Source of the DNA: Escherichia coli
Lineage (GTDB): Bacteria > Pseudomonadota > Gammaproteobacteria > Enterobacterales > Enterobacteriaceae
Length of the DNA stretch: 64,000 nucleotides
Assembly (NCBI RefSeq): GCF_024298765.1
Contig: NZ_CP101210.1
Strand: one strand, 5' to 3'
The notes below the pieces were generated by a model that made no database searches, was not told the DNA's origin, and worked only from the letters and a program-made list of their open reading frames with translations. This document shows, one piece after another, positions 50,270 to 57,589 of this stretch. Position 1 is the first letter of the stretch. Each line of letters opens with the position of its first letter. Made by a program: the position numbers and the translations under genes.

Positions 50270-50884
50270 TTACCCTTCGATAAAGGCCATCCCTGTAAAC
50301 GTTCGTCGCGGGTTGCCACGTTCAATCTGGTGATGGAACATTCGCCGCTGCGATTTCAGCGCCGCGCTATTTTCCTGTTGCTGTTGTTCCAGCTTCCAGG
50401 CAATCAGTAATCGCGCCAGCCGTTTGTTAGCATGCTGACTGCGCTCTGACTGAACCTTCACGCTAATACCGGATGCCAGATGCGTGGCGCGTACCGCCGA
50501 GTCGGTTTTATTGACATGTTGACCGCCCGGCCCCGACGAACGCAGCGTCTCATAACGGATTGCATCCGATTGTTCCTGCTCATCAGCGGTAAAACGCCCA
50601 ATGCCCAGAAACCAGTTTTTGCGCCCATGATGAGGCCGATACGGACTCGGACAAATCCACTGAATAGTGCCGCACCAGCTTTCGCTTAGAGCCCATGCGT
50701 TATCGCCATCCAGAGAAATCAGCGCCGAACGCAGTGTGTCAGAGTAGCGACCCGTTTCTGTTTCCAGCACCGTTACCGCGACGTCCTGTCGGGTAGCTTC
50801 TTTAATCAGCCTGTCCAGTGCTTTTCTCACTGCGAGACAACATTCTTCCGGCCCCTGAGCAGAGGAGAGTTGTAGCAAGATCAT
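50270..50884 (-). CDS. prfH: Peptide chain release factor homologue PrfH, apparently full length (204 aa)
   Basis: From [30 protein letters not shown].... GGQ motif ([20 protein letters not shown]). ATGA overlap with the upstream rtcB-like gene. Confidence 0.85.
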
Positions 50885-52032
50885 CCTTTTTTCCCTCCAC
50901 TGTTTTTGAGCGTCAGCACCGGGCGCAGTCGCGCGACAGGAATAATTAACCCAGCCAGCACCAGACATTGCACCACGCTTTCAGCCGATTTATAGGCTTG
51001 TGGCGCTTCTTCAAAGATGAGTTGTTTATCGCGACAAATTACCCGACTGCCAAGTTCAGTCCGCGAGAGTTGCGTCGCCGTGTATTTCGCTGCCAGACGC
51101 CCTTTACACTCGGTGCGCCCCCATTTACGCCCCGCCCCATGCGCCAGCGAGTGGAGCGTTTTTTCGTTCGCAACAGGTTTAACCAGCCAGGAGTAATCGC
51201 CGCGTGAACCGGGAATAATCACCAGACCGTTGTCATCCGGCGTGGCGCCTTTACGATGCAACCAGCCCTGTTGATCGCCGATTTGGCACGCGCTAACAAA
51301 GTTATGCGCCACATCCAGAACCGGACTTCCGGTGGCCTTAACTTGTTGCATTATGCGCAAAGCGATCAGCTGGCGATTAATACGCGCAAACGCCAGCGCA
51401 TCGTCATGTTCCGCAATATACCGTAGCGCGTCGTCACTGCCTTCAGGCAAACCATGATGCGAAAACGAGGCAATATGCCGCTGTAAAATAGACTGCCCCA
51501 ATCCCCTCGAGCCGCTATGAACCAGCAGTTGCAGATGCTGCGCATCCAGACCAGCCAGTGCAAACAGTTCCGCGTCGATAATTTGATCAATCTGTTGCAG
51601 TTCTACGAAGTGGTTACCGCCACCGATGGAGCCAAGCGAGTTGCGCCACGGATGCTGTGCAAATGCTGACGGCAGGTTTTCCTCCAGCCAGCTTTCTTCA
51701 GCAACGTCATCCAGATCTGATAATCGCTTTTCAAACTTATCGGCGTTGTATTTGCGAGCGAGAATATCTGTTTGCCATAGCGCCATGCCGCAGCCGATAT
51801 CATTGCCGACCAGTGCCGGGTAAAAACGACCAACAGAGAAGAACGCTGCGCCAATCGGGTAGCCGCGTCCGGGATGTAAATCTGGCATCCCCACAACGCG
51901 CTGCATGTTGGGTAAATTTGCCGTGGTGTGTAATTGTTGGATCGCTAAACTCTCGATCCACAGGTCATCAGATGCGATGGTAAATACCGCATCGGATAAG
52001 GGACGAATATATTTGCCCATGTACCATTCCAT
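50881..52032 (-). CDS. RtcB-family RNA ligase paralogue (RtcB2-type), apparently intact
   Basis: About 380 aa. [52 protein letters not shown] and AHGAGRK match RtcB metal/GTP-binding motifs. Start is 52032 or 52020. Confidence 0.85.
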
Positions 52033-52209: not shown

Positions 52210-52662
52210 TTAATGTTGCGGTTTATATCGCATATAAAAATTAGTAAACCACGTTCCCCGGCATTCAACGCGCTGCTGCTTAACTGTCTGAAAACCATAA
52301 CGTTCAAAAAAGGGTTTTGCGGTTATGCTGGCGTCCACCGTAAGTTCGGATTCAGACTTAATCAATGGTTTTAACAAAGCGCTGGCAACTCCGCGTCGGG
52401 TGTATTCCGGTTCAACAAATAACATATCGATATAATGTCCAATGCGGGTAATAAAACCAACCGGTTGTGCATTAATAACTGCAACCCGCACTTGTGATTT
52501 CGCGAGTTTCTCCTTCCAGCGAGATTCGTCAATCTGCGCCCAGGCGGCAATTTGCTGTGGAGAATAGTGCTGACTCGCCGTCATCGTAACAGCTCGAAGG
52601 AAAATAGCGCATAGTTGCTGAAAATCACCAGGCTGATAGTTTCTTATTTGTATGTTATTCAT
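52210..52662 (-). CDS. yafP: GNAT-family acetyltransferase YafP
   Basis: 150 aa [21 protein letters not shown].... ATG lies in an ATGA overlap with the dinB stop. Confidence 0.9.
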
Positions 52663-53714
52663 AATCCCAGCACCAGTTGTCTTTCCATTTGAGGGTCAAG
52701 CAACGTCACATGCAGCCCCACCAGTCGCACACCGCGCCCGCCGCGACGTTCATCCCAGGTTTTACGCGCGGTGGCGATTAGATCAGCTTTATTCAGCCGC
52801 GGCCAGACGTGCTCCTGAGTAGTTTGCTGAAAATCGTCGAACTTTAATTTCACCCCCTGGCGAGCAATCAGTAAATCAGGTTTTACCTTTGCCAGACGGC
52901 GTTCAAGTTCAGGATACAGCCGCTCAATAATCGCTTCACATTCAGACCAGTGATGAATATCTTCCGCCATCGTGCGTTCCACGCCGACGGATTTTCGCAA
53001 CCGTTCACTGTTAACGTCGCGCTCGTCAATCCCCTGACTACGCTCCCACAAAATGCGGCCAAATTTGCCAAAGCGTTTAAGCAGAATCACCAGATCACAC
53101 TTTTGCACATCACCGCAGGTCCGCAGCCCCATCGCTTCCAGTTTTGCCGCCGAGACTTTGCCGACGCCGGGAATTTTTGCCAGCGGTAAGGTTTGCAGAA
53201 ATGCCGGAACTTCTGCCGGCGTAATCACAAACTGACCGTTGGGTTTATTCATGTCGGAAGCAATTTTGGCGAGAAACTTGACCGGCGCAACGCCCGCAGA
53301 CGCCGTCAGTTGCAGCTCGTTGAAGATCGTCTGGCGGATTTCCTGGGCGATGAGGGTCGCAGAACCGTGGCAATGGACGCTATCGGTGACATCGAGATAG
53401 GCTTCATCCAGTGATAACGGTTCAATGCGCGAGGTATAGCGCGAGAAAATTTCGCGGATATGATTTGAGGCTTCTTTGTAGGCGTCAAAGCGCCCTGGAA
53501 GCAAGGTGAGATGCGGGCATAATTTGAGCGCCATCCCTGTCGGCATAGCGCTACGTACGCCAAATTTACGCGCGGGATAATTGGCGGTGCTGATCACCCC
53601 CCGTCGTTCGCGGCTGCCGCCAATAGCAATAGGGATATCGCGCAGGGCGGGATTATCGCGCATCTCCACCGCTGCGAAAAAGCAGTCCATATCCACATGA
53701 ATGATTTTACGCAT
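52659..53714 (-). CDS. dinB: DNA polymerase IV
   Basis: 351 aa [33 protein letters not shown].... Confidence 0.97.
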
Positions 53715-53784: not shown

Positions 53785-54545
53785 TTAACGCGCTCGCTGC
53801 GAAAGCACCTGCTGCTTATCCAGCTTTTGCACCAGCGGCTGCACCACTTTATCCCCATGCTGACCAAAGTATTGATACAGCGTATCGGACGCACTTTTGG
53901 TCAGCACCATAATCTCAATGCGCCGGTTGCCCGCGCTTTGCGGATTTTTGGCATCCAGCAACATCTGGTCCGCCATTGCGCTTACCTGCATCACTTTATC
54001 TTCCGGCATTCCGGCCTCTTCCAGCACCCGACGAGCCGAAAGCGCGCGATCGCCCGAAAGGTTCCAGTTGTTGTAGATATTGTTTTTGTAGGCCATCGCA
54101 TCGGTATGCCCGGTAATAATAATTTTGTTATCGAGAGAGTCGAACACCGGCGCAAGCTCCACCAGCAGCGTTTTAAAGAACGGCATAATCTTCGCGCTGC
54201 CGCGTTCAAACATATTGCGGTTCTGGTCGTCTTTAATCAGCACGCGTAATCCCTGGGGAACAATCTCCATCTCCAGATTCGCTTCCATATGCGCATCACG
54301 GGCGATGGTATTGATACTGGTTGCCAGCTCGCCAAGCTCGGTGGCGGATTTCTTCTTCAGCAGCGCCGTTTTCTCGTTGACGTCGCGCGCTTTTTTCTCC
54401 GTCTCTTCCGGCACCGCCACGGTGGCAGGTTTTGGCGGATGAGACGGGCTGATTTTATTTAACGGCGACAGCCCGCCACCATTGAAAATCGACTGCCCGT
54501 GCAGCGCGGCGATAATGCTTTCACGCTCGGATTTACTGACGCTGT
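53785..54545 (-). pseudogene. lafU: lafU' (MotB-like lateral-flagellar stator), N-terminally deleted remnant
   Basis: ...LRVLIKDDQNRNMFERGSAKIMPFFKTLLVELAPVF...IIITGHTDAMAYKNNIYNNWNLSGDRALSARRVL (OmpA/MotB C-domain). The 5' part of track ORF 53785..54675 is antisense lfhA. The junction lies at about 54533-54546. Confidence 0.8.
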
Positions 54546-56254
54546 TGACAATCAACTTTATCGTCGTCACCAAGGGGGCCGAGCGTATTTCCGAGGTTTC
54601 TGCCCGCTTTACCCTGGACGCGATGCCCGGCAAACAGATGGCGATTGACGCCGATCTTAACGCCGGGTTGATCAACCAGACGCAGGCGCAAACCCGGCGT
54701 AAAGATGTCGCCAGCGAGGCCGATTTCTACGGCGCAATGGACGGGGCATCAAAATTTGTGCGCGGGGACGCCATCGCCGGGATGATGATTCTGGCAATCA
54801 ACCTGATCGGCGGCGTCTGTATCGGCATCTTCAAATACAACCTGAGCGCCGACGCCGCCTTCCAGCAATATGTGCTGATGACTATCGGCGATGGGCTGGT
54901 GGCGCAAATCCCTTCCCTGCTGCTCTCCACCGCGGCGGCGATTATCGTCACCCGCGTCAGCGATAACGGTGATATCGCCCATGACGTGCGTAATCAGTTG
55001 CTGGCAAGCCCGTCGGTTCTCTACACCGCCACTGGAATTATGTTCGTGCTGGCGGTGGTGCCGGGAATGCCGCATTTCCCGTTCCTGATGTTCAGCGCCC
55101 TGCTTGGTTTTACCGGCTGGCGGATGAGCAAGCGCCCGCAAGCGGCGGAGGCGGAAGAGAAAAGCCTCGAAACGCTAACCCGTACGATGACAGAAACCAG
55201 CGAGCAACAGGTCAGTTGGGAAACTATTCCGCTGATCGAACCTATCAGTTTAAGCCTCGGCTACAAACTGGTGGCGCTGGTGGATAAAGCGCAGGGCAAC
55301 CCGCTCACCCAGCGTATTCGCGGCGTACGTCAGGTGATTTCCGACGGCAACGGCGTGCTGCTGCCGGAGATCCGTATTCGGGAAAACTTCCGCCTCAAGC
55401 CCAGCCAGTACGCCATTTTCATCAACGGCATTAAGGCTGATGAAGCGGATATTCCGGCAGATAAACTGATGGCCCTGCCCTCCAGCGAAACCTACGGCGA
55501 GATAGACGGCGTGCTGGGGAACGACCCGGCGTACGGGATGCCGGTCACCTGGATTCAGCCCGCGCAGAAAGCGAAGGCGCTGAATATGGGGTATCAGGTG
55601 ATCGACAGCGCCAGCGTAATTGCCACCCATGTGAATAAGATTGTGCGCAGCTATATTCCTGATTTGTTTAACTATGACGATATTACTCAGCTGCATAACC
55701 GTTTGTCGTCGATGGCACCGCGACTGGCGGAAGATTTGAGCGCGGCGCTCAATTACAGCCAGTTGCTGAAAGTGTACCGGGCGCTACTGACTGAAGGCGT
55801 TTCCCTGCGCGATATCGTCACCATCGCCACCGTGTTGGTCGCCAGTAGTGCGGTGACTAAAGATCATATTCTGCTGGCGGCCGATGTGCGCCTGGCGCTG
55901 CGGCGCAGCATTACCCATCCGTTCGTTCGCAAGCAGGAGCTGACGGTGTATACGCTGAATAATGAGCTGGAAAATCTGCTGACCAACGTGGTGAATCAGG
56001 CGCAACAGGCCGGCAAAGTGATGCTTGATAGCGTGCCAGTGGATCCGAATATGCTCAACCAGTTCCAGAGCACGATGCCTCAGGTGAAGGAGCAGATGAA
56101 AGCGGCGGGGAAAGATCCGGTGCTGCTGGTGCCGCCGCAGCTGCGCCCCTTGCTGGCGCGCTACGCAAGGTTGTTTGCGCCGGGGCTGCATGTGCTGTCG
56201 TATAACGAAGTGCCGGATGAGCTGGAGTTGAAGATAATGGGGGCGCTGATATAG
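54533..56254 (+). pseudogene. lfhA: lfhA' (FlhA-like lateral-flagellar export gate), lacking about the first 115 codons
   Basis: Homology to FlhA starts at ...LLTINFIVVTKGAERISEVSARFTLDAMPGKQMAIDADLNAGLI and continues to the C-terminus. The upstream codons of the track ORF are antisense lafU. Confidence 0.8.
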
Positions 56255-56532
56255 GCATGATAAGACGCGTCTGCGTCGCATCTGGCACCGGTACACAACC
56301 GCCGGATGCGGCGTGAACGCCTTATCCGGCCTACGGGTGAGCACGGTTTTGTCGGCATGATAAGACGCGTGGCGTCGCATCTGGCATCGGCGCACAACCG
56401 CCGGATGCGGCGTGAACGCCTTATCCGGCCTACTGGTGAGTGCGGTTTTGTCGGCATGATAAGACGCGTAGTGTCGCATCAGACACCGGCGCACAACCGC
56501 CAGATGCGGCGTGAACGCCTTATCCGGCCTAC
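56254..56532. repeat. REP/BIME array: three tandem units of about 100 bp
   Basis: Units start at 56254, 56354 and 56453. Each reads ggcatgataagacgcg...gtcgcatc.g.ca.cgg..cacaaccgcc.gatgcggcgtgaacgccttatccggcctac. Confidence 0.9.
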
Positions 56533-57287
56533 AAAATCGTCTCTTCCGTCAAAATCCGTCGCGCGCCTAAAAAATGGTCCTGCCAGAAAGGTTCGGCTAA
56601 CCGACTTACCCGAATGGTTTCCCCGGTGCGCGGTGACTCGATAAACTGACCGTCTCCAAGATATACGCCCATATGGTCGGCTATCTCACGACTGTGGATA
56701 TGGAAAAACAGCAAATCTCCCCGGCGCAGGTCGTTATTCGCCACAATCGTTGCCCGACGGTAGTGGTACATCTCATTGGCCGTGCGCGGGAGCTTAGCCT
56801 CAAGGATCTTGTTGTAGGCATAAAAAACCAACCCGCTACAGTCGAAGCCTTTATCAGGCCGCGTGCCCCCCCAGATATAAGGCTTACCTAGCTGCTGCTC
56901 CAGGCGGTGAATCGCCACTTCGGTGATGTTATGTAGATGGTCGCTGCTTAAGAAATGATTATTCTCCACCAACGCCTGCCAGCGTCTGTCACTCGCCTTG
57001 AGCGGCGCAGGAAACCATTCTGGATGCTGTTTTATCTGCTCCCGATTATGCTGGCGCAGCGCCCTTCTGCTTTTGGCATTGCCTTCCACAATATAGCTGG
57101 CCTGCTTTTTCAGATGGGTTTGGTACTGTTTTAATAAACGCGCACGGTTTTGCATCCGCTGGCGGGCGGCGTAGCTAAAAGAGATATGTGATGTGGTGGC
57201 GCTGGCGAGTAAAGGGAGCAAAACGCATAACGAAAACACGCCTGGATGCAGAAATCTGCCGTGCAAGAACGAAGACATGAAGGACAT
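56529..57287 (-). CDS. yafL: NlpC/P60-family peptidoglycan endopeptidase lipoprotein YafL
   Basis: 252 aa. NlpC/P60 core GKPYIWGGTRPDKGFDCSGLVFYAY...DHMGVYLGDGQFIESP. Confidence 0.9.
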   Translation of the reverse strand: MSFMSSFLHGRFLHPGVFSLCVLLPLLASATTSHISFSYAARQRMQNRARLLKQYQTHLKKQASYIVEGNAKSRRALRQHNREQIKQHPEWFPAPLKASDRRWQALVENNHFLSSDHLHNITEVAIHRLEQQLGKPYIWGGTRPDKGFDCSGLVFYAYNKILEAKLPRTANEMYHYRRATIVANNDLRRGDLLFFHIHSREIADHMGVYLGDGQFIESPRTGETIRVSRLAEPFWQDHFLGARRILTEETIL

Positions 57288-57589
57288 AAACCAGCTGAAT
57301 GAAGGTGAGAATTTTAAAAGACCGGAGGAGTAAACGGGATTATTAATTGCTTATTTGCATATTACTATTGCGGTTTCATAATCTTAGGAAATAAGAAATA
57401 AATCTACAATCCATGCGCTTTTCGGACTCTTGAAAACTGCCCCTGTGCTAAATTTGTAAACCCTGCGCCGACAGGCTTGCGTAAAACTCTTTTGGTGATA
57501 ATGTGAGCCTTCCAAATCCAGACTATTCCGATTTGGGATTCATTTTGCCGTCCTGGCGTGTGTAACCGTTTTATCAAGGAATAAGCAGT

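Follow-up and report, generated by a model that had tools for sequence, protein, structure and literature searches.

How should one read a place in a genome where the remains of two flagellar genes meet back to back at a single point: as the fossil of one old deletion, or as a joint that is still being made or kept? This question is raised by positions 53785-56254 of a 64,000-nt stretch of Escherichia coli (contig NZ_CP101210.1; the whole stretch is called the window below), where a 3' part of lafU, encoding a lateral-flagellar MotB homologue, adjoins a 3' part of lfhA, encoding the FlhA homologue of the Flag-2 system. With high confidence, which covers the identity of the scar and not its history, these positions hold the scar that the Flag-2 deletion canonically leaves in E. 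coli, known as fhiA-mbhA in K-12. The scar as such is already known, being the fhiA-mbhA remnant of Ren et al. 2005, and its identity, anatomy, junction and distribution could be observed directly. We found the identical junction of this 36-38 kb deletion in Escherichia, Citrobacter, Kluyvera and Dryocola, with remnants that look constrained and flanks that match the local intact alleles.

E. coli K-12 and B keep fhiA and mbhA only (PMC3032704), and in a Flag-2-less strain of sequence type 131 (ST131) the fragments measure 769 bp and about 1700 bp, sizes as in the present scar (PMC5369007). Among 100 E. coli strains the truncated pair was present in 76 of the 76 that were Flag-2-negative (PMC6993521), and the same work cites Ren et al. 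2005 as having noted direct repeats at the Flag-2 ends. In the survey of De Maayer et al. 2020 (PMC6993521), 531 of 4028 strains are reported to carry lfhA and lafU in truncated form, Citrobacter included; the words 'breakpoint' and 'identical' are absent from their text.

Results and Discussion

Identity and anatomy of the scar

The region is covered by two long open reading frames (ORFs) that overlap by 194 nt. A profile search found an OmpA-family domain (PF00691, E = 2.9e-14) in the minus-strand ORF (53785..54675, 296 amino acids, aa) and an FHIPEP match starting at profile position 99 of 657 (E = 2.2e-189) in the plus-strand ORF (54482..56254, 590 aa). A preliminary description, made from the letters alone, had proposed a MotB-like C-terminal remnant and an FlhA-like gene lacking about 115 codons. 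The domains, the annotation of the Nissle 1917 and K-12 genomes and gapless alignment to intact loci including 042 confirm the first as LafU and the second as LfhA, from which 130 N-terminal codons (390 nt) are lost.

The intact Flag-2 loci compared are those of E. coli CREC-U1, 042 (NC_017626), FAH and O111:H- 11128. The scar fragments align without gaps to both ends of all four, and the breakpoint sequences are the same in each. The identity of lafU', whose alignment ends at 54553, is 98.1% to CREC-U1 and 96.1% to 042, and that of lfhA' is 96.7% and 94.0%, respectively. Compared with these loci 38,138 bp (CREC-U1), 36,008 bp (042), 37,134 bp (FAH) and 35,058 bp (O111) are missing, and the value for 042 bears out the cluster of roughly 35-40 kb that had been expected between the fragments in this strain. 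The gene order dinB-lafU...lfhA-(rayT)-yafL-dpaA is maintained in scar and intact strains.

In a three-way alignment with CREC-U1 and 042 the left alignment stops at 54553 and the right one starts at 54551; the sequence left of 54551 matches lafU and not lfhA, and the sequence right of 54553 matches lfhA. The actual junction is the ATC at 54551-54553 and not a point at about 54533-54546, a figure which had probably been derived from the start of a partial FlhA at 54536 in the annotation of the NCBI Prokaryotic Genome Annotation Pipeline (PGAP). This ATC is the sole exact microhomology (3 bp) and lies inside an imperfect 9/12 repeat (CTGTTGACAATC at lafU, CTGATGATCATC at lfhA). The two remnants are divergent and their truncated 5' ends touch, leaving no intergenic DNA (Table 1). 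Both long frame extensions are real ORFs made of 23 and 41 codons of partner antisense, in agreement with their earlier description as artefacts of the junction, and they are read-through into the other fragment.

Table 1. Coordinates of the scar and its parts in the window.
Feature	Position	Strand	Description
lafU' (old name mbhA)	53785..54553	minus	3' 769 nt of lateral-flagellar MotB homologue, codons 53-307 of 307
lfhA' (old name fhiA)	54551..56254	plus	3' 1704 nt of Flag-2 FlhA homologue, codons 131-697 of 697
Junction ATC	54551-54553		common to lafU' and lfhA', present at both breakpoints of intact loci
lfhA' frame extension, artefactual, 23 codons	54482..54550	plus	runs into antisense lafU'; begins at TTG
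lafU' frame extension, artefactual, 41 codons	54554..54675	minus	runs into antisense lfhA'
Retained half of lafU hairpin	54537..54553		arm TGACGCTGT 54537-54545 and loop bases TGACAATC 54546-54553

Lost from lafU are 51 codons and 2 nt (155 nt), which comprise the N-terminal cytoplasmic segment and nearly the whole transmembrane helix (WKVAFADFTLAMMALFMTLW), and the OmpA-like peptidoglycan-binding domain is retained. The Asp in the ADF of this helix is the proton-binding residue of MotB. As residues 1-52 including WKVAFADFTLAMMALFMTLW are deleted, the helix with the conserved Asp and the plug of a MotB/LafU stator are incomplete; full-length LafU relatives show PF13677 and PF00691, truncated ones PF00691 only. 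The first 130 residues of FlhA are taken to cover transmembrane helices 1-4, and the N-terminal membrane domain of an FHIPEP export gate is incomplete in lfhA'. With LafU' lacking its membrane anchor, LfhA' lacking its first 130 residues and the operon promoters gone from both, neither remnant can serve in its original role.

In the intact loci lafU and lfhA are each the final gene of their own operon, and both remnants are therefore without the operon promoters. A weak sigma-70-like match (9/12) at 54489-54516 is directed into lfhA' and speaks against taking the label 'promoterless' as proven. We propose that an ancestral cluster of about 36-38 kb for a second, lateral-type flagellar system sat between dinB and yafL, and that one illegitimate joining at the shared ATC, linking lafU codon 52/53 to lfhA codon 130/131, would have removed it together with the upstream genes and promoters, so that two divergent 3' fragments without a spacer were left.

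The 2.6 kb around the scar are 100% identical to the Nissle 1917 record, in which this 2.6-kb query has one matching place; no flagellar genes are found in the 10.6 kb around it, the whole genome not having been searched with interior Flag-2 genes. The NCBI annotation of the identical record gives dinB, a lafU coding sequence (53785-54570, minus), a PGAP partial FlhA pseudogene 'missing N-terminus' (54536-56254, plus), yafL and dpaA. The PGAP 'LafU' of 261 aa starts at GTG 54570, inside antisense lfhA'.

Spread within E. coli

The scar and that of K-12 are collinear and gapless across the junction (2551 nt, 95.3% identity), and the junction is the same to the base, as it is in O145. Intact lafU and lfhA contain the scar flanks as expected, and the alignment with intact Flag-2 and the K-12 scar, which had been suggested as a check, thus returned one and the same breakpoint. 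Using an 81-nt probe centred on the junction we searched 5426 complete E. coli genomes and found the whole probe in 4083 of them (about 75% scar), while about 1314 match its lafU half only and are read as intact loci. Junctions at the neighbouring CTG or TGA microhomologies were not seen, and the lowest-identity full-length probe match listed (O145, 96.3%) differs by ordinary single-nucleotide polymorphisms (SNPs) only. An identical breakpoint had been equated with a single ancestral deletion; the identity stands, but the conclusion does not follow automatically, since the scars do not cluster and the junction also occurs in other genera.

Some genomes deserve a separate remark. Lesions of another kind occur in a few E. 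coli genomes. In OkiPb01676, for instance, the loss is larger: only the last 146 nt of lfhA remain beside an IS421 transposase gene and ecpA-ecpR, and the missing part takes in lafU and dinB and reaches as far as the ecp operon. In the representatives Shigella flexneri SFBU1023 and SFBU0723 and E. coli ECDA1023 and ECGI0523 the scar is present with protein matches in many low-identity pieces, and these four look like error-rich assemblies rather than true divergence. An E. coli-type scar with 98% protein identity on a 3.4-kb contig of a metagenome-assembled genome labelled Clostridiales bacterium is almost certainly a mis-binned Escherichia contig.

The same junction in other genera

A degenerate junction pattern, able to find the canonical junction only, was scanned over one genome per bacterial species. 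The canonical junction, with LafU I53 against LfhA I131, was found in Citrobacter pasteurii, C. murliniae, Kluyvera sp. 142486, K. ascorbata, Dryocola clanedunensis, Escherichia albertii and the Escherichia-like 'Enterobacteriaceae bacterium G50'. The synteny with dinB and yafL is maintained in the Citrobacter and Kluyvera scars, and the Dryocola scar has a different left-hand context with rnk and gntP in place of dinB. The eight scar loci read outside the window agree in every one of the first 40 residues of LfhA', with wobble differences from the fourth codon on. Four intact and three scar loci of Citrobacter and Kluyvera have an additional gene between lafU and dinB; its product of about 213 aa has no Pfam match, and the gene is absent in E. 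coli.

The remnants in these genera are not decayed. lfhA' is an open frame of 567 codons in the window, C. murliniae, Kluyvera sp. and Dryocola (three other loci are unreadable to the end), lafU' is open in every locus examined, and the only frameshift is one in lfhA' of E. albertii. Compared from scar to scar, lfhA' has a ratio of non-synonymous to synonymous divergence (dN/dS) of 0.02-0.11 and lafU' one of 0.04-0.16, the synonymous divergence (dS) being saturated between genera (about 1-2.5). Within E. coli, singleton changes have the same ratio of synonymous to non-synonymous on scar alleles (50:9) and on intact alleles (36:6), counts which are of limited value as many of these 'singletons' are old haplotype blocks and not recent mutations.

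Such figures might suggest that selection maintains the remnants because one or both of LfhA' and LafU', or else the junction region as DNA or RNA, are functional, which would account for the open frames and the low dN/dS in four genera; the equal singleton ratio and the weak promoter-like match upstream of the junction are also in line with this. We consider it improbable. LafU' has neither membrane anchor nor signal peptide and, going by the biology of MotB, its periplasmic domain would remain in the cytoplasm. No start codon of lfhA' is conserved across genera: neither the TTG of the plus-strand extension nor the in-frame ATG at 54515 is conserved in the scars of Citrobacter, Kluyvera and Dryocola. 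The frameshift in E. albertii also counts against it, selection on the remnants would leave the identical flanks of scar and intact alleles unexplained, and exchange of the flanks with intact genes, or a young age of the scars, would produce a low dN/dS just as well.

Scar and intact alleles share their flanks

We compared 11 E. coli alleles, of which seven are scars (the window and six others) and four are intact. Several results weigh against a simple history of the scar. There are no indels among the 11 alleles and both frames are open in all seven scars. The scar alleles do not form a group, no site divides scar from intact, and the flanks form a mosaic in which long blocks are identical. 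The scars of Nissle and K-12 differ at 19 (lafU') and 100 (lfhA') positions, and the scar of 2016C04-116 differs from the intact allele of CREC-U1 at 0 and 1. The low dN/dS between genera belongs to the same series. Because of the cross-genus junction, the open frames, the low dN/dS and the shared flanks, one old deletion followed by neutral decay is rejected.

Close pairs of scar and intact alleles are found repeatedly. The RM9387 scar and the O111 intact allele show 7 and 4 differences in lafU' and lfhA', the O111 allele matches the scars of phylogroup B1 at 99.8-99.9% after in silico deletion, and the K. ascorbata scar is 98.5% identical to a conspecific intact allele up to the junction. 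One such pair are 2016C04-116 (scar) and CREC-U1 (intact, with the 38,138 bp present), clone-mates around the locus, which are separated by one SNP in 20.6 kb on the left and three SNPs and one indel in 21.2 kb on the right, without a SNP cluster at the junction. As a side observation, yafL of 2016C04-116 is frameshifted by a 1-nt deletion relative to CREC-U1.

In the four intact E. coli loci the interior and the flanks are equally diverged. A sharp step in divergence at the breakpoints, as expected for a site-specific insertion, was looked for among these alleles and not seen in any of the four, and the Flag-2 island is therefore a resident and not a recent import. The dS of lfhA' (54551-56254) reaches 0.19-0.30 between phylogroup-level E. 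coli haplotypes, and their table has a strongly mosaic pattern, suggesting that the alleles are old and that the locus recombines frequently. All four intact loci encode one and the same lateral flagellin LafA (WP_000949083.1), though the neighbouring DNA differs by 3-8%. Three of these four 'intact' loci have a single inactivating lesion, namely a flgC frameshift in 042, a fliF frameshift in FAH and an internal stop in flgK in O111.

A single ancient deletion would fit these observations if it had persisted as a long-lived presence/absence polymorphism, in which homologous recombination exchanges each flank as far as the junction and occasionally moves the entire island in or out, and we give this history close to an even chance. 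The flanks would then resemble those of the local lineage and remain subject to the same selection as the intact genes. A one-off illegitimate event gives a unique junction without any special mechanism, and both allele types coexist in E. coli and in K. ascorbata, and also in Citrobacter and Kluyvera (PMC6993521). The mosaic flanks, with their long identical blocks between otherwise divergent alleles, are as expected, the Flag-2 region of ST131 has been described as a recombination region (PMC4637896), and a Flag-2 'insertion' marks ST131 subclades (PMC5369007). The price is that both alleles must have been kept while Escherichia, Citrobacter, Kluyvera and Dryocola separated, or that the junction crosses genera by recombination between DNA with an estimated divergence of roughly 15-25%. 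In the clone-mate pair recombination has left no footprint, and the left-hand context of the Dryocola locus is also difficult to reconcile with it. An argument that intact alleles cannot convert sites close to the junction, and that a single origin is thereby ruled out, was dropped, as heteroduplex can reach the border of heterology.

The alternative is that the same junction has been remade from intact loci across lineages and genera, a recurrent precise deletion channelled by local DNA structure, which we regard as possible but rather doubtful. It accounts directly for every comparative result: the junction is identical in C. pasteurii, C. murliniae, the two Kluyvera, D. clanedunensis and E. 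albertii despite a dS of 1-2.5 in the flanks, the changes next to it are synonymous from the first codons on, the clone-mates have nearly identical flanks, the O111 allele matches the B1 scars after in silico deletion, the K. ascorbata pair is alike right to the junction, and the intact loci show no step at the breakpoints. However, a donor with near-identical flanks could yield the clone-mate pair through ordinary recombination. It is also established that 3 bp of exact microhomology 36 kb apart are a very poor substrate for slippage, and the variant junctions at the neighbouring CTG and TGA were not seen in the E. coli search.

Hairpin and repeats at the breakpoints

The structure that might guide such a deletion is found in intact lafU, which contains a perfect 9-bp inverted repeat with a loop of 9 nt in 042 (in lafU sense TGACGCTGT-GGATTGTCA-ACAGCGTCA). 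The second arm ACAGCGTCA starts one base beyond the retained loop bases in the intact loci, and the deletion therefore broke the DNA within the hairpin loop. The DNA fold has -10.5 kcal/mol (z = -6.1), and none of 200 shuffles was as good. The hairpin is one of 26 inverted-repeat matches of this quality in the 38.5-kb locus (arms of at least 8 bp, spacer of up to 12 nt, overlapping registers counted separately). It is kept in eight lineages with 95.8% of cells paired: nine of nine pairs form in E. coli, C. rodentium, Dryocola and Enterobacter, C. freundii keeps it via a double compensatory change, Pseudescherichia and Leminorella have eight of nine pairs, and K. ascorbata has seven Watson-Crick pairs and one G-T with one position unpaired. 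The covariation is not significant, as the one compensatory pair (C. freundii) was reached by 126 of 500 shuffles, and selection for the hairpin structure is for this reason not claimed.

The illegitimate joining may thus have been helped by the strong lafU hairpin and the 9/12 imperfect repeat. For a deletion that recurs, the crossover would fall in the hairpin loop and meet the repeat at lfhA, and the scars would be young everywhere, a scheme that we put forward tentatively. The strength and conservation of the hairpin argue for it, and the covariation result argues against it. Enterobacter has the hairpin, yet the junction was found in no Enterobacter species representative. On the lfhA side the 12-nt palindrome TGATGATCATCA was considered as a structural element, but despite its conservation in eight sequences its fold is not significant against shuffles (z = -0.26).

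The annotation of the four intact E. coli loci lists no recombinase gene, the hypothetical proteins there not having been analysed further, and the Flag-2 breakpoints are not REP-like (repetitive extragenic palindromic), although RayT is nearby. The reciprocal junction of an excised circle would read ...CTGATGATCATC|CACAGCGTCAT..., and it had no match in metagenome contigs, which is a weak negative. With no annotated recombinase, an exact core of 3 bp in a 9/12 repeat and no circle junction found, the locus does not match a site-specifically excised island; the missing recombinase annotation and the missing circle junction also count against a recurrent deletion.

The three histories, polymorphism, recurrent deletion and selection on the remnants, are not mutually exclusive. 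We lean towards a single origin of the scar with circulation by homologous recombination with intact alleles, which is favoured but inseparable from recurrent precise deletion. That the canonical junction is not a single fossil, being either regenerated by structure-guided precise deletion in the lafU hairpin loop or actively maintained, is conceivable, even if we would not expect it; regeneration or maintenance would explain the identity in four genera, the flanks that are identical to local intact alleles and the lack of decay.

Neighbouring genes

Several features around the scar differ between strains. dinB (52659-53714, minus) directly overlaps yafP (52210-52662); the toxin-antitoxin pair yafN-yafO between them is present in K-12, O157, 042 and FAH and absent here as well as in CREC-U1 and O111. 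Further left, 50881-52032 is an intact gene for an RtcB-family RNA ligase; the identical Nissle record has prfH further on, and K-12 has only truncated remnants of both. Right after the lfhA' stop, 56243-56540 consists of three tandem units of about 99 nt, each with a REP-like palindrome (GCCGGATGCGGCGTGAACGCCTTATCCGGCCTAC). The REP-associated transposase gene rayT occupies this spot in K-12, 042 and many strains, and there is none here. The ORFs 56306..56644 (plus) and 55784..56494 and 56161..56457 (minus), with their repeated peptide motifs, are translation artefacts of the REP array. About 300 nt (57288-57589) separate yafL from dpaA (yafK), where the dinJ-yafQ toxin-antitoxin pair of K-12 is absent.

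Conclusion

As a pseudogene pair of the textbook kind the annotated locus is of minor importance, beyond a reminder to annotators that a fusion has produced both the 261-aa 'LafU' and the long overlapping ORFs as artefacts. The comparative results could carry more weight. The junction would be a presence/absence polymorphism of great age that recombination holds together, or else a hotspot at which a costly organelle is precisely lost. In both cases the locus is an easily testable system for the switching off of large accessory clusters in natural populations, and if precise loss is frequent, ancestral-state inferences such as the ST131 'Flag-2 insertion' need to be re-examined.

Among known systems the closest is fhiA-mbhA of K-12, which has the same fragments, orientation, neighbours (dinB and, at the opposite end, yafL) and junction to the base. 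It differs in its sequence, as described above, and in its neighbourhood, that of Nissle being without rayT, yafNO and dinJ-yafQ and with intact rtcB-prfH. The terminal genes of the intact Flag-2 locus of 042 align to the scar fragments without gaps, and the difference is that this locus still holds the 36,008 bp, including the 130 N-terminal codons of lfhA and, from the 5' end of lafU, 51 codons and 2 nt. The remnants of De Maayer et al. 2020 (PMC6993521) are likewise truncated lfhA and lafU genes in Enterobacterales, Citrobacter included; beyond that work, the junction described here is base for base the same in Citrobacter, Kluyvera, Dryocola and E. albertii, with a dN/dS well below 1. The locus also bears a certain resemblance to programmed excision elements that interrupt genes, namely the Bacillus sigK skin element and the Anabaena nifD element, but this is a resemblance only. 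Here too a large block lies between two gene halves and its removal gives one invariant junction. Unlike these elements, the Flag-2 block has no annotated recombinase inside, a core of 3 bp and no circle junction found, and its removal destroys two genes.

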